Assembly (NCBI GenBank): GCA_964385105.1
Contig: CAYLMU010000001.1
Coordinates: forward strand, 194,252 to 258,251
Source of the DNA: an uncultured Candidatus Saccharibacteria bacterium
GTDB lineage: Bacteria > Patescibacteriota > WWE3 > UBA101185 > UBA10185
Direction of reading: 5' to 3'
DNA length: 64,000 nt
Of the stretch, positions 1 through 34,974 are shown one piece after another. Under the pieces are notes generated by a model that saw only the letters and a list, made by a program, of their open reading frames with translations, searched no databases and was not told the DNA's origin. A program made the position numbers and the translations under genes. Every line of letters begins with the position of its first letter. The first letter of the stretch is position 1.

Positions 1-410
1 GCCGATATGTGATCAATGCTTTTTCTGCGTTTTTGTGGAACACCTAGTTCTATAGCACCTTCGAGCGCTTCGGTACTTGTTAAATATTCATTTACGAATT
101 TTACGGGCTTATTGATTCTGTATTTAAGTTTTTTTGTGAAATGTCTAACTTTTTGTGATTCCTGGGTTTCTTTTCGGTCAGCCGTAAGAGGTAACCCCAT
201 AATTATGGTATCCACATGATTTTCATGGGCTACCTTTGAGATTTCCTGAATTGCATCATCCGTTGGTTTTGCATTAATTACTTTAATCGGTGATGAAAAC
301 CCTGCCCTGCCTAATGCAAGACCTATATTACTTTCACCATAGTCTATTCCCAAAACAAATTCATCATATGGTGATTTCTTTTTTGTTTTATGTTCTTTTG
401 ATTTCGACAT
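1..410 (-). CDS. ruvX: Putative pre-16S rRNA nuclease / Holliday-junction resolvase-like YqgF (RuvX). Partial: the C-terminus runs off the window start.
   Basis: Manual minus-strand translation from the ATG at 410 gives MSKSKEHKTKKKSPYDEFVLGIDYGESNIGLALGRAG...IIMGLPLTADRKETQ..., which matches the RuvX/YqgF N-terminal GIDxGxxRIGxA motif. There is no stop before position 1. This ORF is not in the ORF track because it is open-ended. Confidence 0.55.
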   Translation of the reverse strand, partial: MSKSKEHKTKKKSPYDEFVLGIDYGESNIGLALGRAGFSSPIKVINAKPTDDAIQEISKVAHENHVDTIIMGLPLTADRKETQESQKVRHFTKKLKYRINKPVKFVNEYLTSTEALEGAIELGVPQKRRKSIDHIS

Positions 411-1923
411 TAATGTTTTCCAATTTGCCCGGAAACTTTTTTAAGAAAGGCAAATTAGGTGTCATATTGAGTGAATAATTATTTATATTTTGAATACGGT
501 CTAAGATTGCCTGGCCGTCTTTTAAACTTTTTCCGGCGAGTGAACTTTTTACATCGTCTTCTTTTATATCTGTGATAACATAAGTTTTAACAGTTACCTG
601 TAAGTCCGCTTTGGTAGTTGATAAAACAGTACTGTCAGTATTACCCAATACTTCAGCATTTATATCCATGTCCTGTGATGAGAGTATGTATCCTTCAGGT
701 ATAAACTCATCCAGCAATTCATTGATTAAGTCGTCCAGGTCTTTAGAAGAGTACGTAAGCCCGGTGATCAACACCTCACGCGTTAATTCAAGCTCATCTG
801 CCTCCTCATCAACTTCCGCACTTAATATTTCATTTTTAACAGAACTCTGCCCGGACCCTTGAATTAAGGATCTACCCGACAAAACTGCACTTTTTAATCT
901 TTCATCCGAAATTTCCGTTATTTTTTGGGTAACTTCTTCTTTTGCCAATAATATATCTTCTTCAGTAACCACTTTTACTGTTTCACTTTTTCCGCCCGAA
1001 AGATTACCATTTGTTTCTGCCGAAACATCACTTTTGCTATAGTTATCAACCGCAAGATCCTCGTCGTCTTTAATGTTGTATTCTTCACCGATTTCTCGGG
1101 CAACAATATTTGCATCCGCAGACCCCGGAGTTATTACTTTTGTCACCGGGTCTTCAGTTCTGGCTTCTACTTCAATGTCCTGGTCAAGCACATATTCCAG
1201 GTCGTCTTTGTCGGCTGTTAAAACTGTACCTTTTTTTAAATTTTTATCACTTGTAGTTTTGTTGTAAATGGTAACTTTACCCGAAGCAGTCTCACCAATA
1301 ATTTTTTCTCCTGTGGTTGGTACTGTTACTTTTTCGCTTATTAATGTTTCAACTTGATGCCCTTTTAATGATTTTTGTTGAGCACTATTTGTACCGGTAC
1401 TGTCAGCTGTAATTTGAATACTTTTTGTTAATGGCTGGGATTTAACATCAATTACAACTTCTGCTTTATGCATTCTTGATAATGCCATATATCCCCCGAG
1501 TCCTAAAAGTACTAATAGCAATAGTGTAACTAATACAATCTTTGGAGGCCCCCCTTCAGCTTTTGGAAGTTTTATGGGCGGTAGCTTTATACCTGCTAAC
1601 GAAGGTAAAGCAATAGGAAACTTCTTTTTGTGTTTTGGCTTTATTTCTGTTTCATCAGGATTTACTTCTCTTGACTTGAAGTCTGCAATTTCCTCATCCC
1701 GGCTTAATTTTATAAGTCTTTGCCCGTTTAAGTCTTTTGTATCGATATTTAAAGATTTACCAAGTCTTTCGGCTTCCTTTTCAAGAAGTTTAATATTTAT
1801 GATATTTTCAAAAAGTAGTGCGCCTTCAGGTACAAATAAAACAATACCGAGATCATTAGTATTTCTGATTTTTGAAATTATATCCATAACATCATCATGT
1901 AGTTCTATGTTTATACTTGTCAT
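388..1923 (-). CDS. Hypothetical bitopic membrane protein (511 aa). It has a ~130-aa cytoplasmic N-domain, one TM helix (IVLVTLLLLVLLGLGGYMAL) and a ~360-aa acidic Thr/Ser-rich extracytoplasmic domain.
   Basis: Long ORF that overlaps the stop of the upstream actin-like ATPase gene by 4 nt (operon-like arrangement). The protein has a single hydrophobic segment. No recognisable catalytic motifs. Confidence 0.5.
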   Translation of the reverse strand: MTSINIELHDDVMDIISKIRNTNDLGIVLFVPEGALLFENIINIKLLEKEAERLGKSLNIDTKDLNGQRLIKLSRDEEIADFKSREVNPDETEIKPKHKKKFPIALPSLAGIKLPPIKLPKAEGGPPKIVLVTLLLLVLLGLGGYMALSRMHKAEVVIDVKSQPLTKSIQITADSTGTNSAQQKSLKGHQVETLISEKVTVPTTGEKIIGETASGKVTIYNKTTSDKNLKKGTVLTADKDDLEYVLDQDIEVEARTEDPVTKVITPGSADANIVAREIGEEYNIKDDEDLAVDNYSKSDVSAETNGNLSGGKSETVKVVTEEDILLAKEEVTQKITEISDERLKSAVLSGRSLIQGSGQSSVKNEILSAEVDEEADELELTREVLITGLTYSSKDLDDLINELLDEFIPEGYILSSQDMDINAEVLGNTDSTVLSTTKADLQVTVKTYVITDIKEDDVKSSLAGKSLKDGQAILDRIQNINNYSLNMTPNLPFLKKFPGKLENINVEIKRT

Positions 1924-3128
1924 TTTTGTTTGAGCATTTCTAAATAAATTACACTTAACGTAGCCGGAACAACAAATTCTGAATGTTCCAGAATTCCGGT
2001 AATATCTTTAATAAAATCTAAATTTTGTGCGTTTATCTTATTAAACTCCGGAGGTTTCTTAAATGGAATAGATTTTGTCCAGGGTTTTGTTTCAAGCGCA
2101 TCATTTAATACCGGAACTTTGCTCCCTCCGCCAGTTAAATAAATATCCGAAGCAAAAGTTTTAACACCCTCAAATTCACCAAAAACGATTTCAAGTCCTT
2201 CTAGCCATGTATTTGCAACATCAGTCAAAGAACTTTCAATCTTAATTATATCGCTATCTTGCAGATTCCCTACCAGATATTCATATTTAAGCTTTTCTGC
2301 CTCAGCTAGCGTTAAATTAAAATCTCTGCTTAATTTTTTCGTAAAATGAGAGCCTCCTATACTGAGGCTTTTTGATGCTACAAGCCCTCCTCCAAACACA
2401 ATACCTACTTGAGTTGAGCTGCTACCTACGTCAATAATTATTCCGTCTACTACTTTGTTTTTACGTTTTATTACTTCGGTTATTGAATATAAGTTTGAAG
2501 TTATGGCTAAAATGTCCATCTTCATTAATGATGCCAGTTCTTGCAAATGATTAAGGTGATATTCAGGTGAAAAGGCTGTATATGTTGCTGTTTCTATTTT
2601 AGTACCTGATTCCCCTTCCAGCTTATGTATATAATCATTGTCAAGTTTTGTATAAACATTTGCTTTTGTAATTAATGCAAGTTCTGTTTCAATGTCGCCT
2701 TTGTTTTTTAATAAAAGGTCGTGTGCTTCCGAATAGGCCGAATCTATAGTTTTATCATTAACTTCGTCGATTTCTTTTTGTAATATTGGTTCAGGCTTGG
2801 GGCGGGTTACTCTTACTGTAGTTACAAGTGAAATACAAAGATCACCGCTTACGCCAAAAATTATGTGGTCAGGTTGAATATCAAGCCCTTCCCCTGCTCT
2901 ATATAAAGCTTCATCTAGCGCAACTGCAGTCTTATCTAAATCAACTATATTTCCTGATCTAACCACTCCCTGCTCCAAACTTTGCTTATTTGCCCCCTTT
3001 AACTCAAGTGTTTTGTTTTGATCATCATATTGAAAAATTAGACATTTTACTGCATTTGTTCCAATATCAGCAACTGCAAATGTGGTAGGAAACTCTCGTT
3101 TTTTAAGCTTTAAAGGCAGTTTAAACAT
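1920..3128 (-). CDS. FtsA/PilM-family actin-like ATPase (402 aa)
   Basis: N-terminal phosphate-1 motif AVADIGTNAVK. Central IIIDVGSSSTQVGIV and LSIGGSHFTKKLSRDFNLTLAEAEKLK segments are typical of FtsA/PilM. C-terminal LTGGGSKVP precedes an amphipathic tail. The genomic context (next to a T4CP-like ATPase, not ftsZ) argues for a PilM-like/secretion role over divisome FtsA. Confidence 0.6.
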   Translation of the reverse strand: MFKLPLKLKKREFPTTFAVADIGTNAVKCLIFQYDDQNKTLELKGANKQSLEQGVVRSGNIVDLDKTAVALDEALYRAGEGLDIQPDHIIFGVSGDLCISLVTTVRVTRPKPEPILQKEIDEVNDKTIDSAYSEAHDLLLKNKGDIETELALITKANVYTKLDNDYIHKLEGESGTKIETATYTAFSPEYHLNHLQELASLMKMDILAITSNLYSITEVIKRKNKVVDGIIIDVGSSSTQVGIVFGGGLVASKSLSIGGSHFTKKLSRDFNLTLAEAEKLKYEYLVGNLQDSDIIKIESSLTDVANTWLEGLEIVFGEFEGVKTFASDIYLTGGGSKVPVLNDALETKPWTKSIPFKKPPEFNKINAQNLDFIKDITGILEHSEFVVPATLSVIYLEMLKQK

Positions 3129-3148
3129 TATTATGATTATACCCTAAT

Positions 3149-5572
3149 TTAAAAAGGTATTAGTTTCCTTGGATCAACTTGACTTGGCATTGGCTCAGGT
3201 TCAGGTTCAGGGTTGTAACCCGCGCGTTCATTAATAAACTCTTCAACTTCGGCTACCGGTGTACCGTACCGCTCTCTAGAATCTTTGCGAATTCTCTCGG
3301 CAATCTCATCACTTTTTACAGTTTGATTTACAACATCCCAGTCAACCATAGCCGAAAAGGGAACAGTAGGGTGGCCTTTAACCAGCAATCTAATATAGTA
3401 ATTTCCTACCGGAAGGTTAATAAGGTCACTTTGTGTAAAAATTGGTTCAAATTGTTGTTCAAGGTATTCAGCATCATCAACACCAACTCTAAATGATACT
3501 GTTGTACCCACATTACCAAACACAGCTTCTTTTATTTCCTCCTGTAGTTGGGCTACAAACTGGTGTGCCACCGTTAGATTTAGTTTATATTTTCTTGCCT
3601 CGGATAATATTGTTGCAAAGTCATCTGTGGCAAAATTTTGAAACTCATCAACATATAGGTAAAAGTTAGGAAACTCTTCTTTTCCAAGCAATGAGGCACG
3701 AGCTAAAGCTGCAGATAGAATTCTAGGTACAATCAGTAATCCCAAAAAGTTTGAGTTTTCTTCACCGATTTTACCTTTTGATAAATCAACGAGTAATATT
3801 TTTTTATCACGCATCACCTGGTGTAAATTAAACGACGATTTCTTCTGACCAATAATATTACGCATTGTTCTTTCAGTAACCAGTCTGTCAAATTTAGACA
3901 CAAAATACCCCATCATTTCACCTTTTCTATTCGCTGTGGTCTTAGCCATTTCATCAGTCCAGTAGCGTTTTACAAGAGGGTCTGTGATTTTTGGTAAAAA
4001 TTGCTTAACGTACTCTTCATCAATCAGTAGCCTTAAAACATCCACCATGGTTGCATCCGGGTCAGACATTGCAGTTAACATAACATTTCTAATTGACCTC
4101 TCAAGTTGTGGACCCATAATACCTTGGCGATTCGGGTCATAAAGTTTATATAGCAATCCTATAAAAGAGTTAATAAGCATGTGTTTTTCTTCTTCTGTGT
4201 GAGCTTCAAGCATGTTTAACCCTACCGGATTCTCGGTGTCTGATACATCAAATAAAATAACATCATCTACTCTATGCTCAGGTATTTTTTTAAGTATGTC
4301 GTCAATATCACTTCCGTGAGGGTCGATAAATGCCAACCCTTCGCCGTTATAAATATCCTGAATTGCCAAGGTTTTCATAAATTCAGATTTACCTGTACCC
4401 GTTTGCCCGATAATATACATGTGCCTGGTTCTATCATCGGCATTCATAAATAACTTTTTCTCGGTATTTCTATAAACGTTTTTACCCAAATATAAGCCTT
4501 CTTCCGGAGTATTTGAAGGTGCAGGGGCTTTTCTGGCGGTTAACCACAAAATGTTTGGAGTTTGAATTTCTTTGCTTGGGAAGTGAAATATAGTGGCCAT
4601 TTCTTCAATGTTGAGAACCGTAATATTGCTGTATAGAACAATATCAAATATAGGAATCTGAAACGTTCGCGGTACCATTTTTCTATAAATAAAATTGCTG
4701 ATAAGTTTTTTTGTAAAAATGATTTTTCTGCGTCTAAAGTTACTATATTTTACATTTGTAAATTGTTCAAATGAGGTGGCTACATTATCAATATGATTTC
4801 GAGCCGAAATTTTGTCATCTGAAATTGCAACTATTCTGATTTTAAGTTCAAAGCCAGGTTTAGATGTTTTTTCTTCAACTCCTTCTAAAAATGCGGTATC
4901 AACCCTGATGTTTTTTTCAGGATTTGAGCTTTTATTATGAATGTGGCCTACAAATGCATTTCCTGCTCTTCTCCAACCACTGCCGGCCGGGGAAATTAAA
5001 TATTGTATTGCAACAACTTCTGTTTCTTTTAGTTTGCTTAATGACGATGTGACACTGCTTAATGGGTCTGTGGCTTCCATACTTTTGTATGTTTTAATAG
5101 GATAATATGGTGGTCCGCTTAGTTTTAGCTCAACAATCTCAGTAACTTTTCCTCGATCCCATATTTCGTTAGGGTCTATAACATCAATTTCTGCAGTAGG
5201 ATAAGCGCCATTTATTTGTTTCTCAACAAAATTAACCAGCTCATCAGGTACTACTACATAAAATCCAATACCTTCTTTTTTTGAAACTATTTCAAATGAA
5301 ATTCGCCGTTGTCCTTTAAATAGAGACTGAAAAAAACTTCTTCTAAAACCCATGAGACTGGCAAATAAATGTTCTGCTGCCTCTATTTCATATTCGTTTT
5401 GCGGGGGAAGTTTTATATGTAAAAAAGTCAGTTTATACTGGTGTGACTTAATATAGCTGTTTCTTCTCCAATATATAATTGAGTATATAAGCCATGAAAA
5501 AAAGCCAATTAAAAAGACAATATAAAACAAGAGCCAAAAAATGTTGTATAACAGCTGGCTAAAGTTCTCCAT
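3149..5572 (-). CDS. Membrane-anchored VirD4/TraG/TrwB-like (type IV coupling protein family) P-loop ATPase, 807 aa
   Basis: N-terminal TM helix (LLYNIFWLLFYIVFLIGFFSWLIYSIIYW). Walker A HMYIIGQTGTGKSEF followed by FIDPHGSDID. Walker B FYLYVDEFQNF followed by KYKLNLTVAHQFVAQL, resembling the T4CP/VirD4 xxQSxxQL motif. The C-terminus is acidic Pro/Glu-rich (PEPEPEPMP). A VirB4- or HerA/FtsK-type ATPase cannot be excluded from sequence alone. Confidence 0.6.
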   Translation of the reverse strand: MENFSQLLYNIFWLLFYIVFLIGFFSWLIYSIIYWRRNSYIKSHQYKLTFLHIKLPPQNEYEIEAAEHLFASLMGFRRSFFQSLFKGQRRISFEIVSKKEGIGFYVVVPDELVNFVEKQINGAYPTAEIDVIDPNEIWDRGKVTEIVELKLSGPPYYPIKTYKSMEATDPLSSVTSSLSKLKETEVVAIQYLISPAGSGWRRAGNAFVGHIHNKSSNPEKNIRVDTAFLEGVEEKTSKPGFELKIRIVAISDDKISARNHIDNVATSFEQFTNVKYSNFRRRKIIFTKKLISNFIYRKMVPRTFQIPIFDIVLYSNITVLNIEEMATIFHFPSKEIQTPNILWLTARKAPAPSNTPEEGLYLGKNVYRNTEKKLFMNADDRTRHMYIIGQTGTGKSEFMKTLAIQDIYNGEGLAFIDPHGSDIDDILKKIPEHRVDDVILFDVSDTENPVGLNMLEAHTEEEKHMLINSFIGLLYKLYDPNRQGIMGPQLERSIRNVMLTAMSDPDATMVDVLRLLIDEEYVKQFLPKITDPLVKRYWTDEMAKTTANRKGEMMGYFVSKFDRLVTERTMRNIIGQKKSSFNLHQVMRDKKILLVDLSKGKIGEENSNFLGLLIVPRILSAALARASLLGKEEFPNFYLYVDEFQNFATDDFATILSEARKYKLNLTVAHQFVAQLQEEIKEAVFGNVGTTVSFRVGVDDAEYLEQQFEPIFTQSDLINLPVGNYYIRLLVKGHPTVPFSAMVDWDVVNQTVKSDEIAERIRKDSRERYGTPVAEVEEFINERAGYNPEPEPEPMPSQVDPRKLIPF

Positions 5573-5909
5573 GTTCCTCCACTATACTTTGAATAAACTC
5601 TGATTCTTCTTTGTCTGCTTCTTTGGTTGGCCCATCGGCTTCAGGTGAGACGTTTTGGAGAGTTGCAGCTGCTTCTTCGGGGGTGTCAGACCTTAAATCT
5701 ACAACATTTGCACCGGGAATATTTGCATTGTCATCTGTATCATCAGGGTCAATACTTGCTGATAAATCCTGAACTGTTTCAATTTCAAGATTCATAATTG
5801 GAGTTTCTGCAATATTTGGTTGTTCTGAATTGTTTTCAGTATTTTTTGCAGGATTCTCGGGCATAATTGATTTTATTAAGCCAGGATTTTTTTGAGCAGG
5901 TGCATCCAT
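5559..5909 (-). CDS. Hypothetical small acidic protein (116 aa, Asp/Glu/Pro-rich)
   Basis: ORF located immediately upstream of the T4CP-like gene, overlapping it by 14 nt. Low-complexity acidic composition. No motif recognised. Confidence 0.35.
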   Translation of the reverse strand: MDAPAQKNPGLIKSIMPENPAKNTENNSEQPNIAETPIMNLEIETVQDLSASIDPDDTDDNANIPGANVVDLRSDTPEEAAATLQNVSPEADGPTKEADKEESEFIQSIVEEHGEL

Positions 5910-5942: not shown

Positions 5943-6395
5943 CTATTGCTTAAATGTACCTTTAAAAAAGTTTTTTTCTTTTGTATTTGGCATATCAAAC
6001 AAATTGGTAATTTGTTCTCTTACATTTCTACTTTTTTTCTTTTCGGTATTATCTACAACTTCTACTTCTTCTTCTATTTCAATTTCAAGTTCAACATCAG
6101 TGTATTCAGACTCAGATGAAACCGGGGTAGGATTTACTTTTTCAATTGTGCTTGTTTTGCTTGTTATTTCTTTTAAAGATTTAACCGCGTTTATTGTTGA
6201 TTCGGCAATATTTATTAAGGTTGGGGTGGGATGAGCAAGTTTTGCTGTTAATCCTTGTGCGTCATCAAGTATATTATTTGCTCTTTTAACAGTATCTTTT
6301 ATATCTTTTAAAACATTTATTACATAAAAACAAACTGCAGCTATGCTTATGCTTAAAACTGTGAGAGTTAAAACTAATATTAATTGTACATCCAT
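5943..6395 (-). CDS. Small N-terminally anchored membrane protein, DUF948 (YtxG)-like architecture (150 aa)
   Basis: N-terminal TM helix (LILVLTLTVLSISIAAVCFYVI) is followed by a helical region and an acidic tail (VELEIEIEEEVEVVD). The antisense ORF 5932..6234(+) is low-complexity and was rejected. Confidence 0.4.
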   Translation of the reverse strand: MDVQLILVLTLTVLSISIAAVCFYVINVLKDIKDTVKRANNILDDAQGLTAKLAHPTPTLINIAESTINAVKSLKEITSKTSTIEKVNPTPVSSESEYTDVELEIEIEEEVEVVDNTEKKKSRNVREQITNLFDMPNTKEKNFFKGTFKQ

Positions 6396-6477: not shown

Positions 6478-8730
6478 TTAATATTCTTCGTCAGTATGGT
6501 CAAAACTGCTGGAAGAGCTTGTGTTTAAAATTTCTCTTGGCTTACTTCCGTTAGCAGGACCAACTATTCCATGTGCTTCAAGTTCATCAAGAATTCTAGC
6601 TGCACGTGAATAACCTATTGAAAGTTTTCGTTGTAATAAAGATGCAGAGCCTTTACCTTCTGCCACAACTAATTCAACAGCTTCATCAAAAAGTTCGTCA
6701 ACACTTTCTCCCCCGGCTGCTACACTTTTACCAACCTCAGGCTCTTTAATTTCGGTAATATCATTTTTATAATCAGGTTTAACACCACGACTCTTCAAAT
6801 ACGAAACAAGATTATTAATTTCCTTGTCTGTAACCAAGGCACCTTGTATTCTGGTGGGTTTTGAATCGTCAGGAGGAACAAAAAGCATATCTCCCATACC
6901 AAGCAACTTTTCAGCACCCGGTTGGTCAATTATTACACGTGAATCTACCTGACTTGTGACACCAAAAGCAATTCTGCAAGGTATGTTTGCTTTAATTAAA
7001 CCGGTAACTACGTTTGTTGAAGGTCTTTGCAGCGCCAAAATTAAATGAATTCCGGTCGCTCTGGCCAACTGTGCCAACCTCACAATACTTTTTTCAACTG
7101 CTGCAGGGTCTGTTATCATAATTTCGGCCAGCTCATCAACTATTAGCACTATATAAGACATTGCCTGAAACCCAGATTTTTCGTTGTATGCCTCAATATT
7201 TCTAACTTTTGCCCCCTCCAGAAGTTTGTACCTCCGATCCATTTCTTGTACAAGCCATTTAAAAGCCGATGGTGCCTTATCAATATCCGTAATTACAGGT
7301 GACAGCAGATGCGGAATATCATTATAATGAACAAGTTCCACTCTTTTTGGGTCAATTAAAATAAATTTTACTTCTTGTGGAGTTGCCCTAAATAATATTG
7401 ATGCCATAATATTGTGAATAAATACCGATTTTCCTGAACCTGTTGACCCTGCTATGAGTAAATGGGGCATTTTAGAAATATTGTATACATGTGTTTCTCC
7501 TTTAACATCTTTGCCAAGCACAATTGAAATTCTGGACTTACTTTTTTTCATATTTTCAGATATGAGTAGTTCTTTAAAGCTAACCGGAACCCGGTTTGTG
7601 TTAGGCACTTCTATACCAATTGCCGATTCTCCGGGAATAGGGGCTTCAATTCTTACCGAGCCCGTTGGTGAAGCCAATTGCAAAGCCAGATCGTATTGCA
7701 GGTTTACAATTTTTGCTATTTTAGTACCTGATTCTGATTTAAGCACGTATTGTGTAACGGTTGGCCCATATCTTACGGTATCGATAGTTGTTTTTATACC
7801 AAATGATTCTAATGTTTCGACAATTAATTTTTTACGTCCTACTACATCGCCTCTGTCCGCCTTTAAATTCGACGGGTCGTTTAATAATTCAAGCGGAGGA
7901 AGTTCCCATACCGTATCGATATAGGGTAAGTGTGGTACAAGCGACCCTATACTTGTGACTGAGTCTCCGGCGTTTGAAGCATCCAAAGAGCTAAGCGGTT
8001 CTGTCATAGAAGGAATTATTTCTATTTTTGTTATTTCGGGTTCAGGTACTGATACCATTGCCGGAGCCGGTTCATGATGCATGTCATAATCATCAGCTTC
8101 CTGGTTTATACTACTGCTTACTTCTATGTTTGATTTGGAGTCTTCATCCGAACTGTCTTTTTGAGCGTCAGTTCGATCAAATGAATATCCCAATTTTTCT
8201 ATTGCTGCCTTTGCTAACTCTTTTAGTTCACCCGCTCCTTTGTCCAGTGTCCATATCACGCCAATTAATGTAAAAGCCATAAGTACTAGTCCAGCCTGCC
8301 ATGCATTCATTACACCCATTAGTGCTGATGTCAGCTTGTAGCCTACTATTCCTCCTCCACCACCATCACGTGCAATTTCATATGCATCAACTCTATCGGT
8401 AAAAAGATGCAAAAATCCTGCCAGAGTAAACAAAAGTACACTAAGACCGGCAACGATCCTCAATTCCAGAATTTTCCACTTAAACGTGTTTGTCAGAATT
8501 AATGCTGAGATTAGTAAAATAGGAATAAGTAAAAAAGATGCATACCCAAACCCTATTCTCAAAAGTGCCTGGATTTTTGCATTAAGCATTTCATCGCTTG
8601 CAACAAACGAAATCAGAATCATACATGAAATAAGTATGAATAATATTGAAATCGTTGAACGTACTGTTTCGGCACGTACATTGAATCTTGGTTTGAATTT
8701 TTTCTTTCTTCCTCTTTTTTTTCTTGCCAT
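6478..8730 (-). CDS. ftsK: DNA translocase FtsK/SpoIIIE
   Basis: N-terminal multi-TM region. Motor domain with Walker A LLIAGSTGSGKSVFIHN and Walker B LIVDELAE. C-terminal gamma (winged-helix) domain ASLLQRKLSIGYSRAARILDELEAHGIVGP. Confidence 0.85.
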   Translation of the reverse strand: MARKKRGRKKKFKPRFNVRAETVRSTISILFILISCMILISFVASDEMLNAKIQALLRIGFGYASFLLIPILLISALILTNTFKWKILELRIVAGLSVLLFTLAGFLHLFTDRVDAYEIARDGGGGGIVGYKLTSALMGVMNAWQAGLVLMAFTLIGVIWTLDKGAGELKELAKAAIEKLGYSFDRTDAQKDSSDEDSKSNIEVSSSINQEADDYDMHHEPAPAMVSVPEPEITKIEIIPSMTEPLSSLDASNAGDSVTSIGSLVPHLPYIDTVWELPPLELLNDPSNLKADRGDVVGRKKLIVETLESFGIKTTIDTVRYGPTVTQYVLKSESGTKIAKIVNLQYDLALQLASPTGSVRIEAPIPGESAIGIEVPNTNRVPVSFKELLISENMKKSKSRISIVLGKDVKGETHVYNISKMPHLLIAGSTGSGKSVFIHNIMASILFRATPQEVKFILIDPKRVELVHYNDIPHLLSPVITDIDKAPSAFKWLVQEMDRRYKLLEGAKVRNIEAYNEKSGFQAMSYIVLIVDELAEIMITDPAAVEKSIVRLAQLARATGIHLILALQRPSTNVVTGLIKANIPCRIAFGVTSQVDSRVIIDQPGAEKLLGMGDMLFVPPDDSKPTRIQGALVTDKEINNLVSYLKSRGVKPDYKNDITEIKEPEVGKSVAAGGESVDELFDEAVELVVAEGKGSASLLQRKLSIGYSRAARILDELEAHGIVGPANGSKPREILNTSSSSSFDHTDEEY

Positions 8731-28600: not shown

Positions 28601-30292
28601 TTATTCTTCCAGTGGAGCAGTAATAGGTAGTTTTGCCTCTTTTATTTTTAGCCGTCTCATTAATTTGTAAAATAGTTCAATTTCTTCTACTGCAAAGATT
28701 TTTGTAAAAAATAAGTATACGGCGGTACCTGCTATACCTGCTACGGCTGTTAATGCGGCAAGTCCTGCGGTGTGTGCCGTGTCAAAAACAAATTCATCTA
28801 AAAGTTTTAACGGAGCATAAAGTGAAATTCCCATAAATACTGCTGCATAACTTATTTTCACAAAAGGAATAAGAAGTTCGTTAACCTCAAATCCGCCGAG
28901 TTTTTTTGCTAAAAAGTGCAAAAGCAGAATCGAGTCAAGTATCGAAGTTATAGTATATGCAAATGCAATAGACCATACTCCAAGATTTAAAACTCTCACA
29001 AATGTATAAGAAAGTGCAACATTAATAACAATTGTAACTAAACTTATTAAAACCGGCGTAACAGTGTCTTTTAGCGAATAAAAAGTTCTTGATAGCAAAT
29101 AAAATGTACTTTGGGCAAAAATTGATATGCTAAAAAATGCCAAAGCATAAGAAGTTTTTACTGTTGCTTCCCAGGGAAAGTTTGAAACACCGTACACAAG
29201 TCTTACAACAGGTACTCGAAGAACCAGCAAAATCACACTTGCCGGAATAACAAGAAACAATGTTTGATGAAGCGTTGTTATAAATATTTTTTTGAAGTTT
29301 TTTTGGTCATTCTCATCGGAATGTTCTGATAGCACAGGAAGAGAAGCTGTAGCAATAGAAGCCCCAAACAAATGAACGGGAAAATATTGTAATTGACTGG
29401 CGAATTTAAGCAAAACTACCGATGAGGTTGATATTAAAATAGCAAGTGAATTATTTATAGTGGCTACAAGCTGACTGAATAGCACACTCATTACACGAGG
29501 GGGCATTAGCAAAAACATTTTTCTTACTTCGGGAATGCTTACTTTTAAACTTGGAAAATACCTAAAGTCTACAGTTTTCAAAAAAGGTAGCTGTATTAAC
29601 AGATGAAACGCTGCGCCGATTACAATACCCAGTGCCGGCCCATATATGCCCATAATCGGACTTAAAAACATTATTCCAAAAAGCATCCCGAGGTTGTACA
29701 AAATAGGAGCAAGTGCAGGAATGGCAAATTGTTTAAACGATTGAAGTATGCTTGTGAAAAAACTGCTTACAACAAGTACAAGCTGAGCACCCATCATTAT
29801 TTGCATAAGTCTGGCGCCAAGTTTTATTTGGTCAGGTGTAAAAGTACCAACTGAAAGTATTCTTATTAACGGTTCGGCAAAAAGCATAACAAGTACCCCC
29901 AACGCAAAAAAAGTTAAAATTCCGATTGTTATAACCGAAGAAGCAATTTCCCAGGCACGTTTTTTATTTTTTTGTAAAGTGTCTGCAAATATTGGTATAA
30001 AAACAGTTGATATAGCGCCAATAACAAGCACCGAATATATAAGGTTGGGTATTCGATCGGCAGTGTAAAAAATTCCCAGTTCTTCAGAAACGCCGAAATA
30101 ATAGCTTAAAAGCCTTCCCTTTAAGAGTCCAAGTATGGCTGTTATTCCACTTGAAATTGCAAGCAAAAAAGCAGCAGAAAGTATGGAATTTTGTGCCTGA
30201 ACCGCAAAGCTGAGTCTGCCTTTGAGCTGAATAAATTTGAGTTTATTACCAAACAGTTCTAAAAAATTCATATATATGCTATGATACAGCAC
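28601..30292 (-). CDS. murJ: Lipid II flippase MurJ (MviN)
   Basis: About 14 predicted TM helices. MurJ/MOP-superfamily pattern. 563 aa. Confidence 0.8.
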   Translation of the reverse strand: MLYHSIYMNFLELFGNKLKFIQLKGRLSFAVQAQNSILSAAFLLAISSGITAILGLLKGRLLSYYFGVSEELGIFYTADRIPNLIYSVLVIGAISTVFIPIFADTLQKNKKRAWEIASSVITIGILTFFALGVLVMLFAEPLIRILSVGTFTPDQIKLGARLMQIMMGAQLVLVVSSFFTSILQSFKQFAIPALAPILYNLGMLFGIMFLSPIMGIYGPALGIVIGAAFHLLIQLPFLKTVDFRYFPSLKVSIPEVRKMFLLMPPRVMSVLFSQLVATINNSLAILISTSSVVLLKFASQLQYFPVHLFGASIATASLPVLSEHSDENDQKNFKKIFITTLHQTLFLVIPASVILLVLRVPVVRLVYGVSNFPWEATVKTSYALAFFSISIFAQSTFYLLSRTFYSLKDTVTPVLISLVTIVINVALSYTFVRVLNLGVWSIAFAYTITSILDSILLLHFLAKKLGGFEVNELLIPFVKISYAAVFMGISLYAPLKLLDEFVFDTAHTAGLAALTAVAGIAGTAVYLFFTKIFAVEEIELFYKLMRRLKIKEAKLPITAPLEE

Positions 30293-30295
30293 GTT

Positions 30296-30637
30296 ATGGC
30301 AAACACAACATCAGCAAAAAAAGCAATAAGGCAGTCGCAAAAGAAGCGACTTCATAATTTATTGTGGAAAAATCGTATAAAAGAAACTTCAAAGAACATA
30401 AAGAAATATCTACATGAAAAGAATGCAGATATTGATATAATAAAAAAAGAAGAAACTCTGTTTTATAAAATAGTGGATAAAGCTGCAAAAAATAAAGTTA
30501 TTCACAAAAACAAAGCAGGTAGACTTAAATCAAGAATTTCAAAACAGATAGCTGCCCATGAAAAAGCTGGAACAAATAAAAAACCTAAATCCGAAAAAGA
30601 ATCAACCTCCACCAGAAAATCCAAATCTAAGTCCTAA
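30296..30637 (+). CDS. rpsT: 30S ribosomal protein S20 with a ~22-aa Lys/Ser-rich C-terminal extension
   Basis: MANTTSAKKAIRQSQKKRLHN...VIHKNKAGRLKSRISKQIAAHEKAG matches S20 end-to-end. An extra tail TNKKPKSEKESTSTRKSKSKS follows. Start assigned to the Met at 30296. Confidence 0.8.
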   Translation: MANTTSAKKAIRQSQKKRLHNLLWKNRIKETSKNIKKYLHEKNADIDIIKKEETLFYKIVDKAAKNKVIHKNKAGRLKSRISKQIAAHEKAGTNKKPKSEKESTSTRKSKSKS

Positions 30638-31142
30638 TTTAGTTCCTCACATAGTTCCGCCGGTAAAACAGCGTAATCATGAAGCATATGTACCCTTTGT
30701 TGTTGCAATTACTCTTTTATTTCAATTGTTTTTGGTAATAATAATCTTGCATAACTTTTTACTTAATCGCACAATTTTAAGCCTTGAAAAAGATATGAAC
30801 AACACTTATGCACTTGTGCAGCGTGATATTAATGTTTTTGAACAAGTTGATACATTAAGCAGAAAAACCGTTGTTTATGAATCTGCAATGCAATCAAGAA
30901 GTGAAATCGGGAAATATGTTGAGTCAATGCTTGGTTCAATTGCCGGTGATATTGAACTTAACGAAGTTTCGGCTACAGGAAATAGAGGTACTTTTGAAAT
31001 CACAACGCATGAAGCTTTGAGTGGGGCATTACTTATTCATAATTTGTTTGAGACCCGAAATGTTGACTCGGTAGCAATTACGGCAGCCGACTTGAACGAT
31101 AAGGGTGAGTATACAATTAAAATGGAGATTTTGTTTTTATAA
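30558..31142 (+). CDS. PilN-like bitopic membrane protein (type IV pilus / T2SS inner-membrane alignment subunit-like), 194 aa
   Basis: Short cytoplasmic N-terminus (IKNLNPKK, compare the PilN INLLP motif), a single TM helix, a coiled-coil segment and a C-terminal alpha/beta domain. The only in-frame ATG upstream of the TM segment is at 30558, which overlaps the rpsT 3' end by 80 nt in another frame. The start is therefore uncertain. Confidence 0.45.
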   Translation: MKKLEQIKNLNPKKNQPPPENPNLSPNLVPHIVPPVKQRNHEAYVPFVVAITLLFQLFLVIIILHNFLLNRTILSLEKDMNNTYALVQRDINVFEQVDTLSRKTVVYESAMQSRSEIGKYVESMLGSIAGDIELNEVSATGNRGTFEITTHEALSGALLIHNLFETRNVDSVAITAADLNDKGEYTIKMEILFL

Positions 31143-31702
31143 TGCTTGATTATCAAGGGATAACCAACACATACGAAAGAGAAATTAATACTAAACCGCA
31201 AAATAAACTTACTTTATTTATTTTATTGTTTATATTAAATGTGGTTACGTTTAGCTATCCTATAATTTATAAAGGCTATCAGTCAGTTGTAGAGAAAAAT
31301 GCAAAAATTTTAGAATATAATCAAGTTAACCGTGATCTTGAGTCAAATCTGGAAAAAGTTTCATCCTACAGAAATTACATGAATTCAAAAGAAGCACAAA
31401 TTGCCACATTGAATAGGGCAATTCCCTCACATCTTGAATCAGCAGAATTTTTGATGCTATTAACCGATGCTGCTTCACCTTATGGGTATTTGGTAGAAAA
31501 ACTTCAAGTTGATAATTCTAACCCCAACGAAGTTATTATAAATATTGATATGTTAGGTCCTTCATCGACTGCATCATCGGTAATTAAGGATGTAGAAAAT
31601 TTATCGCGGTTAACAATAATTGATGATGTGAAAGTAAAGCCTTCAAATGATGCTTTAGGAGTTCTTGAAATAACGTTTAAAGTTAGAATATTTGCGAGCT
31701 AA
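31142..31702 (+). CDS. PilO-like bitopic membrane protein, 186 aa
   Basis: N-terminal TM helix (LTLFILLFILNVVTF), coiled-coil region and a C-terminal domain ending ...LEITFKVRIFAS, as PilO domains do. Its start overlaps the preceding gene's stop (ATAATG coupling). Confidence 0.5.
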   Translation: MLDYQGITNTYEREINTKPQNKLTLFILLFILNVVTFSYPIIYKGYQSVVEKNAKILEYNQVNRDLESNLEKVSSYRNYMNSKEAQIATLNRAIPSHLESAEFLMLLTDAASPYGYLVEKLQVDNSNPNEVIINIDMLGPSSTASSVIKDVENLSRLTIIDDVKVKPSNDALGVLEITFKVRIFAS

Positions 31703-32418: not shown

Positions 32419-33192
32419 TTATCCTGTTACCAAAACAGCATCAATAAGTAGTCTGTATAATTTTGTTCCTGGGGGAGAACAGGTCATTAGAACAACAGTT
32501 GACTCGTTTAAATATTTAGGTTTAATTTCTGCCAATGGGTTAACCTGGTCGGGTTTGAGTTGTCTTTTTCCTTCTACTTTGTATGTAAGTGTTTTGCCTT
32601 TATATTCTATTGTAAACTCATCACCTGTTTCCAAATCTCCAAGTGTTGAAAAGATTGTTTTGTAATTTTTGGGGTTATAAAAAAAAGGCAAAACCGAGTG
32701 TCCGTAAATAAATGAGTTTCCGGGTTCACCGGGTAGAGCGGAGCCTGTGTAATGTCCAAGTGCATGGTCGGGAACAAGTGTCGGCTCATTAATTTGCACA
32801 CTTGCCCGTTTAATATTAAGTTTTGGTATAGTCAAATAAAAATATTCCTCATAATTACTGTCGTCAGAATTAAAAGTACTTTTTCCAAGAACTTGGGATT
32901 TTTCGTGATTTTGCTGATTTTGTTCTTTTTGTACACTTAGTTCGTCAAATTTAAACTCCTGAAAACCGCTGACATATCCAAGTGCACTTACTTCAAGTAT
33001 TTCAGTGTTTTTTTCTTGGGTTTGAAATGTAACCAAAGGTAACGCAACTTGAGTTGCAAGAAGTGTGAGCGCAAGTACCGGAACTGCAATTGGCACAATT
33101 CTAGTTCTTGCCATAAACCAAAAGTTTATTTGAGTATAAATCGGGTCGTATGGTTGATCTTTAATATATACTTTGGGCTTAAAGTAGGGCAT
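32419..33192 (-). CDS. Sortase-family transpeptidase
   Basis: N-terminal TM anchor. Catalytic His (SFIYGHSVLP), TLxTC-type Cys motif (VVLMTCSPPGT) and a downstream conserved Arg (KLYRLL). Confidence 0.8.
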   Translation of the reverse strand: MPYFKPKVYIKDQPYDPIYTQINFWFMARTRIVPIAVPVLALTLLATQVALPLVTFQTQEKNTEILEVSALGYVSGFQEFKFDELSVQKEQNQQNHEKSQVLGKSTFNSDDSNYEEYFYLTIPKLNIKRASVQINEPTLVPDHALGHYTGSALPGEPGNSFIYGHSVLPFFYNPKNYKTIFSTLGDLETGDEFTIEYKGKTLTYKVEGKRQLKPDQVNPLAEIKPKYLNESTVVLMTCSPPGTKLYRLLIDAVLVTG

Positions 33193-33915: not shown

Positions 33916-34974
33916 TTAATGGATGCCAAAAATATATCTTTGAACGTATGCGTGCATTTGAGAAAAGTCGCCGTTTCTTGGTAAAAGCACATACTGCCCA
34001 TCATAAAGGCTGGTGTCTTCAGGTGCATACAACAATCCGCCTGAATCAGCAGCACTTCTATCATCAAGAACAATTGATGTTACGTCTTCAAAGTTAATTT
34101 GTTGTGAGAGTAAATAGAAATTTTGAATATCGTTAAATGTTAGGTTTGTATCTACATTTTTTTCATATGCATTGTACAGATCGCTTAATTTTGCAGGATT
34201 AATAATTGTATTAAGTGACAATGCCTTATCTTTAATGGCCATAATAACTTTTTGTTGTCTTGCAGCTCTTGCAAAGTCAGTGCCTTCGTTGTTACTTCCT
34301 TTTCTAGATCTGGCAAATTTAAGTGCGGTCTCACCATCCATTTGTTGTTTACCGGCTGAAAATGAAACAGTTTCGTATCTTTCATTAAGTGGGGCATTTT
34401 CTTTACCCTCAACAGGATATTCCGAGTCTACAAATGAGTTGTCAACTACAACCTCAACCCCACCCAAAGTATCTACAGTATCTTTAAAAAGTTCAAAATC
34501 TACAACAGCATAATAATGGATTGGGATTCCAAGAACATTTTCTACAACTTGGCTTATGCCCTCTCCGCCTTCATATGCATAAACAGCATTTATTTTTATA
34601 AAAAAAGGTGTCGGTCCTGTTGTTTTTACCCAAAGGTCTCGCGGCAATGAAATTAATGTGACGGTTTTATCAACACGACCGATGGAAGCAACTAAAATTG
34701 TGTCGGTTAAAGTAGCTGACCTTGTATCTCCCTGACGTTTGTCTGAGCCCAACACTAATATATTGGTTCTACCGTCTGTTTCGTTTAATTTTACTTCAGA
34801 AATATTTGCCACAATTGAAATAGGGTTAAAAATAGCTTTTACGTCATTACCGAATAAAATTAACGATAATCCAAAAAAGCCGAGTACACATGCTGCAATT
34901 AAAATAGGTTTTTTATAATTCTTTTGCTTGGGTTGAGCAGTATTTCGTTTTTTTGCAACATTCATGTATTTCAT
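33916..34974 (-). CDS. LytR-CpsA-Psr (LCP) family cell-wall glycopolymer transferase
   Basis: N-terminal TM helix. LCP core NILVLGSDKRQGDTRSATLTDTILVASIG...ISLPRDLWV. Confidence 0.8.
   Translation of the reverse strand: MKYMNVAKKRNTAQPKQKNYKKPILIAACVLGFFGLSLILFGNDVKAIFNPISIVANISEVKLNETDGRTNILVLGSDKRQGDTRSATLTDTILVASIGRVDKTVTLISLPRDLWVKTTGPTPFFIKINAVYAYEGGEGISQVVENVLGIPIHYYAVVDFELFKDTVDTLGGVEVVVDNSFVDSEYPVEGKENAPLNERYETVSFSAGKQQMDGETALKFARSRKGSNNEGTDFARAARQQKVIMAIKDKALSLNTIINPAKLSDLYNAYEKNVDTNLTFNDIQNFYLLSQQINFEDVTSIVLDDRSAADSGGLLYAPEDTSLYDGQYVLLPRNGDFSQMHAYVQRYIFGIH

Follow-up and report, generated by a model that had tools for sequence, protein, structure and literature searches.

We analysed the stretch at positions 388-5909 of a 64-kb window (64,000 nucleotides, the whole piece of DNA that was examined), which is low in GC and most closely related to genomes labelled candidate division WWE3 (Patescibacteria). 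The stretch carries four minus-strand genes, for proteins of 511, 402, 807 and 116 amino acids (aa), and we think it probable, with appreciable doubt remaining, that these make up two independent, vertically inherited modules that abut only in WWE3. Module A consists of a small acidic protein and a homologue of the type IV coupling proteins (T4CP); module B is an actin-like protein paired with a bitopic membrane protein. A first-pass annotation of this DNA had suggested one lineage-specific machine. Neither part of that suggestion was borne out: the modules lie apart in six of the 14 WWE3 loci and wherever they were found outside WWE3, homologues of the ATPase are found on plasmids of monoderm bacteria and archaea and in phages, and the family of the 511-aa protein comprises 5,187 representative clusters at E <= 1e-3. 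The four genes are as follows.

388-1923, minus: gene for the 511-aa protein, predicted bitopic membrane partner of the actin-like protein
1920-3128, minus: gene for the 402-aa protein, predicted FtsA/PilM-clade actin-fold ATPase
3149-5572, minus: gene for the 807-aa protein, predicted membrane-anchored T4CP homologue
5559-5909, minus: gene for the 116-aa acidic protein, which belongs to module A in WWE3

Homologues of all four proteins are conserved elsewhere, indicating that these are real genes and not chance open reading frames (ORFs).

Neighbourhoods of the two modules

The context of the ATPase was taken from a scan of species-representative genomes, comprising 39 loci. In loci L021-L032, from genomes labelled Staskawiczbacteria, Parcubacteria or 'Patescibacteria', the protein is split between a gene for DUF8128 (430-490 aa), the domain that precedes the motor in the window protein, and a gene for the ATPase proper (510-600 aa). 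By Pfam, the order in L031 is SecD, SecF, sigma70_r4/HARE-HTH, DUF8128, ATPase, PGK, DHH and RNase H, and ORFs of similar size indicate that this order is conserved through L021-L032. In L033-L040 (one of them labelled Paceibacterota) DUF8128 has no ATPase gene beside it, and YceG comes next in L038, the one locus of this group that was scanned. No gene resembling either member of module B neighbours these genes in L021-L040. In 18 of the 19 loci with a separate DUF8128 gene, the gene directly upstream of it encodes a highly conserved protein of some 335 aa that combines an N-terminal sigma-70 region 4 with a HARE-HTH (helix-turn-helix) domain, for example at L031:4987-5991 and L038:4597-5622. 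Neither the WWE3 loci nor the window have this protein.

Module B was followed in seven contexts outside WWE3 (L041/42, L043/44, L045, L046, L049, L050 and L051). All seven have the same arrangement, in which alaS is followed by the actin-like and 511-like genes, as a pair or as a fusion, and then by ruvX and/or YceG (mltG), and in none does the ATPase lie within the flanks of the pair. The first-pass annotation had allowed that ftsZ might adjoin the actin-like gene just outside the window. The DNA past the left end instead encodes RuvX, a HAD hydrolase and a DHH protein, and the FtsZ signature GGGTG[ST]G was found neither in the window, nor in the downstream DNA, nor in 46 other loci scanned.

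Within WWE3, 14 loci have enough downstream sequence for the spacing of the modules to be seen. The modules are directly adjacent in eight and are separated by an ORF of 620-1181 aa in six. The intervening ORF of L009 is alanyl-tRNA synthetase (AlaRS; 37% identical to the AlaRS of L043, E 6e-113), giving the order alaS-actin-511-ruvX that is seen outside WWE3. We read the adjacency in WWE3 as lineage synteny because the modules are separate outside this group and because six of the 14 loci are interrupted. The intervening ORFs of L003, L004, L005, L007 and L018 (720-1181 aa) are fast-evolving and only weakly related to one another, with no predicted transmembrane segment. The two that were scanned, from L003 and L004, matched no Pfam family, and the window has no counterpart of such ORFs.

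A single WWE3-specific translocation or surface-organelle machine, built from the ATPase, the actin-like ATPase and the bitopic protein, would account for the common strand, the short spacers and the lack of a terminator-like site between the genes of 388-5909, as well as for a gene order that is kept in 14 of 14 WWE3 loci. In such a machine the tail of the ATPase might, for example, dock on the actin-like protein as the C-terminal peptide of FtsZ docks on FtsA. About three quarters of 45 aligned WWE3 ATPase homologues end in [KR]x[IL]PF (IPF or LPF), an ending absent from the aligned homologues outside WWE3, and fusion of DUF8128 to the motor is predominantly a WWE3 trait; in L009, where AlaRS stands between the modules, the ATPase ends in KELF and not in IPF. 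Against a single machine are the six interrupted loci, one of them by AlaRS, and the fact that the modules were never found together outside WWE3. Moreover, co-directional unrelated genes are the rule in the window, which is a long run of housekeeping genes on one strand (FtsK, RNase J, PNPase, IF-2 and NusA among them). We regard the single machine as unlikely, and a WWE3-specific functional link of any kind between modules A and B as about equally so. Two points weigh against our preference for two independent modules. The constancy of their proximity in the 14 WWE3 loci was observed in spite of module B proteins that are only 30-43% identical, and it is chiefly in the group in which the modules meet that the DUF8128-motor fusion and the [KR]x[IL]PF tail occur. 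The division role considered below for module B draws on housekeeping synteny, a weak guide in co-directional genomes.

The [KR]x[IL]PF tail looks like a docking motif for some partner protein. Many of the split homologues outside WWE3 (among homologues P0002-P0120) have, at the C-terminus or close to it, a 'PGQxVxF'-like motif, which also resembles a docking peptide, and the ATPase homologue of L031 carries a treble-clef zinc finger. In the WWE3 locus L011 (6729-9294) a 735-aa ORF is inserted after the ATPase gene and is followed by an exact repeat of the last 48 ATPase codons, present as a stand-alone 50-aa ORF; the repeat looks like the scar of an insertion.

Translational coupling had been claimed for three genes of the stretch. 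The claim holds for the 402- and 511-aa genes, which overlap by 4 nucleotides (nt), but not for the 807- and 402-aa genes, which are separated by a 20-nt spacer with no overlap; the only other overlapping junction is that of the 116- and 807-aa genes (14 nt). The spacer upstream of the 402-aa gene (3129-3148, minus strand) reads TAGGGTATAATCATAATA-ATG and contains a perfect TATAAT 9 nt 5' of the start codon. This element could be an internal promoter, from which module B would be expressed as a nearly leaderless transcript; promoter-like matches between the genes of 388-5909 occur at chance level. The GC content is flat, at about 0.34-0.38, and hence gives no sign of a genomic island.

The 116-aa protein is acidic, as first described (23% D+E compared to 5% K+R), and has no transmembrane segment. 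It matched nothing in Pfam, NCBIfam, PHROG or PADLOC, and an iterated hidden Markov model (HMM) found it in 13 loci, the window copy included, each time as the gene just upstream of the ATPase. Two genes further upstream are given for context only.

5943-6395, minus: gene for a 150-aa small membrane protein with an N-terminal transmembrane segment (aa 1-32) and an acidic C-terminus
6478-8730, minus: complete canonical FtsK, with FtsK_4TM, FtsK_alpha, FtsK_SpoIIIE (E 1.6e-60) and FtsK_gamma domains (Pfam)

The 150-aa protein, conserved in this upstream position in WWE3, was found in 15 loci, counting the window copy, and its weak match to Pfam DUF948 (18.5 bits) is below the cut-off.

The 807-aa ATPase and its relatives

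On its domains and profile matches the 807-aa protein is a T4CP homologue, of the 'orphan' kind that is known already. Its parts are listed below; the structural assignments are from an AlphaFold 2 (AF2) model, with the model's own per-residue confidence (pLDDT).

5465-5563, minus: N-terminal hydrophobic helix, predicted membrane anchor, aa 4-36 (hydropathy; one long helix, aa 2-44, in AF2)
4583-5431, minus: DUF8128 domain (PF26449), about aa 48-330 (Pfam match; alpha/beta in AF2, pLDDT mostly 80-94)
3323-4495, minus: P-loop NTPase domain with an inserted all-alpha domain, about aa 360-750 (motifs, Pfam, Foldseek and PDB profile)
4385-4408, minus: Walker A motif GQTGTGKS, aa 389
3644-3661, minus: Walker B motif YLYVDE, aa 638
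3152-3220, minus: disordered Pro/Glu-rich C-terminal tail (pLDDT <50 from aa 788)

The helices inserted in the motor lie at aa 460-590 (AF2 model, pLDDT 84). Like the T4CPs VirD4, TrwB and TraD, the protein has an N-terminal anchor, a Walker A/B motor with an all-alpha insertion, and a TraG-D_C region. Two Pfam models were satisfied, TraG-D_C with 28.4 bits (cut-off 22) and DUF87, which reached its gathering score with 25.8 bits, while T4SS-DNA_transf (15.7, cut-off 20.1) and TrwB_AAD_bind (15.1, cut-off 20.5) fell short. The original description of a membrane ATPase with an N-terminal transmembrane helix, Walker motifs and T4CP-like motifs was therefore upheld. The best NCBIfam matches, SXT_TraD and the VirD4-like CD1115 model (aa 372-700), were sub-threshold, and all NCBIfam TraD and VirD4 models scored the protein far under their cut-offs. 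A profile of the ATPase family matched DotL (4.7e-7) and TrwB (2e-4) in the PDB, and the AF2 model matched TrwB (TrwBdeltaN70) in Foldseek with E 6e-13 and a TM-score of 0.60 on the target. phrog_5156 matched with E 1.3e-87. The DUF8128 profile matched no PDB sequence, and a literature search on this domain found nothing.

Classification by HMM, which the first-pass annotation had called for, placed the ATPase as VirD4/TraG-like. As a second FtsK/SpoIIIE paralogue it was rejected: FtsK_SpoIIIE (PF01580) scored 15 bits (cut-off 24) in an alignment of 28 residues, and neither an alpha nor a gamma domain is present. VirB4 was likewise rejected, with 13.1 bits for TIGR00929 (VirB4_CagE) against a cut-off of 643. 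Full-length VirB4/TrwK chains and HerA are also found by Foldseek, at E-values similar to that of TrwB, and VirB4 (TrwK of R388), which has the same two-part layout of N-domain and C-terminal motor, gives the top matches (E 2.6e-15, ~880 alignment columns). The global TM-score is however only 0.31 and there are no VirB3, VirB6 or VirB8 neighbours. The likeness to TrwK is one of fold only.

Searched by tblastn over about aa 67-790, the ATPase matched 47 phage records and 197 plasmid records, from hosts that include Bacillus, Clostridium, Streptomyces, haloarchaea and Sulfolobus. The match to the Bacillus subtilis plasmid NZ_CP032854.1 covers aa 67-739 (E 1e-36). Directly downstream of the homologue on this plasmid is a gene for a replication-relaxation protein, and beyond it lie genes for conjugal transfer proteins, for TcpE and for a large protein that binds ATP and that we take to be VirB4-like. 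The DUF8128 profile aligns to the N-terminal third of gp156 of Bacillus phage G (hhalign 98.5%, E 3.4e-15), and there (L054, gp153-gp156) a TrbL-like gene and a P-loop_TraG (VirB4-like) gene precede the DUF8128-T4CP homologue. Phage JL (L053, gp149-gp156) has a weak T4SS_pilin match, an Alp/ParM actin-like gene and the DUF8128-T4CP gene, after which comes a Replic_Relax gene. In both Bacillus phages, which are lytic or jumbo phages, the ATPase homologue thus stands amid a small group of conjugation-like genes. In haloarchaeal plasmids the homologue is split into a hypothetical gene and a gene annotated 'TraM recognition domain'. Both phage JL and the Bacillus plasmid carry an actin-like gene close to the homologue. 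This gene was considered as a link between ATPase and actin and was rejected; it is of a different family (ALP_N) and is presumably a partition gene.

Because of this homology to plasmid and phage proteins, and of the relaxase and VirB4-like neighbours found there, we group the window ATPase, by sequence, with the coupling-type ATPases that bear DUF8128 in mobile elements of monoderm bacteria and archaea. The DUF8128 N-domain is common to the window protein and the 'DUF87 domain' proteins of Bacillus plasmids and phages, as in gp156 of phage G. In contrast to the mobile-element T4CPs of Bacillus, the window gene is chromosomal, in a fixed position and conserved across the WWE3 loci examined, and its product is a single 807-aa chain with the WWE3-specific [KR]x[IL]PF tail. 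No relaxase, VirB4, VirB6 or pilin gene was found in the scanned ORFs of the window or of the 10 kb beyond. The stretch is not a canonical operon for a type IV secretion system (T4SS), a type IV pilus (T4P) or a type II secretion system, in agreement with the earlier description.

These plasmid and phage relatives, the nearest full-length ones outside the phylum, could also suggest that the ATPase belongs to an integrated mobile element or an anti-phage defence system and is not a core gene. The PADLOC mad8 model (E 2e-15) and HerA models do match the P-loop region. On the other hand, the WWE3 members are 58-70% identical, always a single chain and always in the same chromosomal position, more than 7,700 homologues were found (a lower bound), no relaxase, integrase, other mad gene or compositional break lies nearby, and there was no match in IMG/VR viral contigs. 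A defence system was rejected since only the P-loop region matches mad8 and HerA and the context is one of housekeeping genes. We consider this origin for the ATPase very improbable.

A published survey counted 5,713 VirD4-like T4CP homologues in 2,918 Patescibacteria genomes, of which only 148 were near virB4 (PMC12102498). The same study found a chromosomal T4SS in about 80% of Patescibacteria genomes, derived the Patescibacteria T4SS from the monoderm MPF-FATA class, and reported that the T4CP copy of S. epibionticum is not essential, raising its exaptation to another role (PMC12102498). What is added here is that DUF8128, a domain previously unplaced, ties the orphan T4CP homologues of Patescibacteria to proteins of a Bacillus plasmid, of Bacillus phages and of haloarchaeal plasmids, in keeping with an origin of the Patescibacteria T4SS from monoderm conjugation systems, as published (PMC12102498). 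The result for the ATPase is tidier rather than new.

The 402-aa actin-like protein and its bitopic partner

The novel part of the locus is module B. Judged by its profile scores, the 402-aa protein belongs to the FtsA/PilM clade of actin-fold ATPases and is no closer to one of the two named families than to the other. It exceeded the Pfam cut-offs of both, with 46.6 bits for FtsA (PF14450; cut-off 31.8) and 39.3 bits for PilM_2 (PF11104; cut-off 27), and failed the stricter NCBIfam cut-offs of both, with 71.3 for TIGR01174 ftsA (cut-off 175.85) and 47.6 for TIGR01175 pilM (cut-off 133). In a PDB profile search with the family, PilM of M. xanthus was the top match (3e-21), and FtsA of S. aureus was matched with 1.7e-18. 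The first-pass assignment to the FtsA/PilM family, with the gene not next to ftsZ, was accordingly confirmed. The phosphate-1, phosphate-2 and adenosine motifs of the actin fold are intact (DIGT21, DVGSSST233 and GGG333).

The resemblance to FtsA includes, in addition to the Pfam score and the intact ATP-binding motifs, the region of the 1C-type insert, which is covered by the TIGR01174 alignment (aa 19-286). There are also clear differences. Identity to canonical FtsA is only 22-24%, the gene is not beside ftsZ, and SHS2_FTSA (PF02491), which is detected in all canonical FtsA matches, was not detected in the 402-aa protein or its WWE3 family. The canonical ftsA-ftsZ pair in L047 looks unlike the window locus. 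No amphipathic C-terminal helix is obvious, and the protein appears to end with the core fold, lacking the linker and the helix. Membrane attachment would in this case come from the bitopic partner. A distant actin-like relative, P0194 (26% identical), is encoded at L048:83-1360 with no 511-like gene after it; beside it are a sortase gene in convergent orientation and four T4SS_pilin genes in a row.

The 511-aa partner has the following parts in its AF2 model (overall pLDDT 83.6).

1699-1923, minus: cytoplasmic alpha/beta N-domain, aa 1-75 (AF2 pLDDT about 90 for aa 1-70)
1471-1542, minus: single transmembrane helix, aa 128-151 (AF2; hydropathy aa 122-151)
391-1470, minus: extracellular domain, aa 152-511, a Baseplate_J/GlxA-barrel-like beta domain followed by alpha/beta repeats (AF2 pLDDT mostly 85-96)

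The N-domain and the transmembrane helix are joined by a disordered basic linker (aa 78-126, AF2 pLDDT <50). The cytoplasmic domain and single helix of the first-pass annotation were recovered, but its long Thr/Ser/Asp-rich exterior only in part: the ectodomain is only mildly rich in these residues (18% S+T, 19% D+E) and is predicted to be well folded and beta-rich rather than of low complexity. Its Foldseek matches were GlxA (1.9e-8) and baseplate proteins of diffocin, phi812, A-1(L), phiCD508 and Mu (1e-7 to 3e-4). Two relatives exceeded the Pfam cut-off of 21.1 for Baseplate_J (PF04865), P0251 with 28.1 and P0249 with 23.0, whereas the window protein had no PF04865 match and scored 18.3 for GlxA against a cut-off of 27. 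The likeness to phage Baseplate_J (the Mu gp47 / T4 gp6 class) and to the GlxA barrel is at the level of fold. Unlike the phage proteins, the 511-aa protein is cellular and membrane-anchored, with no tail or baseplate genes nearby, and the likeness says nothing on function. The N-domain is visible by sequence in the distant relatives P0248, P0252 and P0253, and may be the docking site for the free actin-like protein. A literature search on baseplate J, FtsA and Patescibacteria produced nothing relevant; a preprint on the Pam-pilus of the Candidate Phyla Radiation proved unrelated.

The 402/511 pair is a real unit, being paired or fused without exception across the loci examined. The two genes are separate in L043/L044, L045, L046, L049 and L051 and fused in L041/L042 and L050 (a Shapirobacteria genome and two related contigs), each time with a sortase gene next; wherever they are not fused they overlap or are at most about 50 nt apart. 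L046 is a contig of 71% GC, so the module is not confined to the low-GC Patescibacteria. In the fused relatives P0249-P0251 (723-756 aa) the region before the transmembrane helix is homologous to the 402-aa family (hhalign 96.6%, E 5e-10), but it has lost the 1C-type insert, and its nucleotide motifs DxG and GGG have degenerated. The neighbourhood of L050 also contains a RodZ-like HTH_25 gene and a YtxH-like gene.

One explanation for the 402-aa protein is that it is the PilM of a type IV pilus and serves the PilN-like and PilO genes that lie 27 kb away in the window, as follows.

30558-31702, plus: PilN-like ORF (194 aa, no Pfam match) and PilO gene (PF04350, 29 bits), directly after rpsT

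These genes have no adjoining pilM, one member of the 402-aa family is named PilM by NCBI, and both the PilM_2 score and the best PDB match given above are in keeping with such a role. The constant partner of the actin-like protein, coupled to it and sometimes fused, is nevertheless the 511-aa family and not PilN, the pair occurs between alaS and ruvX-mltG and not in pilus loci, and the TIGR01175 score of 48 bits is far from the cut-off of 133. In TM7x, a cultivated relative, pilM1 and pilM2 are inside the two T4P loci and there is a separate annotated ftsA (TM7x_02800). We therefore consider a pilus PilM quite improbable. TM7x_02800, the sole gene annotated ftsA in TM7x and a possible orthologue of the 402-aa gene, is far from ftsZ (TM7x_00785). 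The PilN-like and PilO genes have rpsT (30281-30637), sortase (32419-33192), LytR_cpsA_psr (33916-34974) and MurJ (28601-30292) as neighbours.

Module B is, in our reading, an undescribed variant of the PilM-PilN, GspL and FtsA theme, and probably an envelope scaffold of the PilM-PilN/GspL-like or FtsA-like kind. As in PilM-PilN and GspL, it combines an actin-fold protein of the FtsA/PilM clade with a bitopic membrane protein, either as two partners or in one fused chain. GspL consists of a fused, nucleotide-dead actin-like domain, a transmembrane helix and a periplasmic domain, an architecture that is matched by the fused P0249-P0251. The differences are in the partner and in the setting. The window partner has a folded 75-aa cytoplasmic domain in place of the short PilN-type peptide, and its ectodomain is Baseplate_J/GlxA-barrel-like where PilN and PilO have a ferredoxin-like fold. 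In contrast to pilus and type II secretion loci, the pair has no pilus or secretion ATPase, platform or pilin genes adjacent to it and lies in the alaS-ruvX-mltG context. A purely architectural analogy to MreB-RodZ can also be drawn, in which an actin fold is combined with a bitopic partner that has a small folded cytoplasmic domain, a disordered linker next to the membrane, a transmembrane helix and a beta-rich exterior; the actin of module B is however of the FtsA/PilM type, the N-domain is not a helix-turn-helix and no sequence relation was found.

Proposed roles of the modules

In the mechanism that we propose, the two modules work separately. The ATPase would form a membrane-bound hexameric translocase and would hand its substrate (DNA or protein) to a monoderm-type T4SS encoded elsewhere, or it may have been exapted to act alone. 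In module B the 402-aa protein, predicted to be competent for ATP, would dock on the cytoplasmic N-domain of the 511-aa protein to make a transmembrane scaffold, either PilM-PilN/GspL-like or of an FtsA-plus-anchor type, and this scaffold could link the nucleotide or polymer state in the cytoplasm to the Baseplate_J-like ectodomain that faces the wall. Module B would then act in cell division or in the growth of the envelope or wall rather than in secretion. The suggestion is made because of its neighbours mltG and ruvX (with alaS) and of FtsK nearby, and also because of the RodZ-like HTH_25 and YtxH-like genes of L050 and of the distance between ftsA and ftsZ in TM7x.

More tentatively, and as a proposal that could well be wrong, the 402/511 pair may be an unrecognised transmembrane system that replaces the membrane tether of FtsA and links the Z-ring to the wall in these ultra-small bacteria. 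A speculative addition is that the coupling ATPase of WWE3 docks on module B through its [KR]x[IL]PF tail. The pair itself is widespread, with 5,187 partner clusters, and is present in several Patescibacteria lineages and in at least one bacterium of 71% GC. Patescibacteria may make up at least a quarter of the diversity of bacteria, and very little of their cell biology has been explored. Module B is directly testable in the genetically tractable Saccharibacteria, and if it is an FtsA equivalent with a membrane and wall partner of its own, it would represent a new mode of anchoring for the division or envelope machinery.

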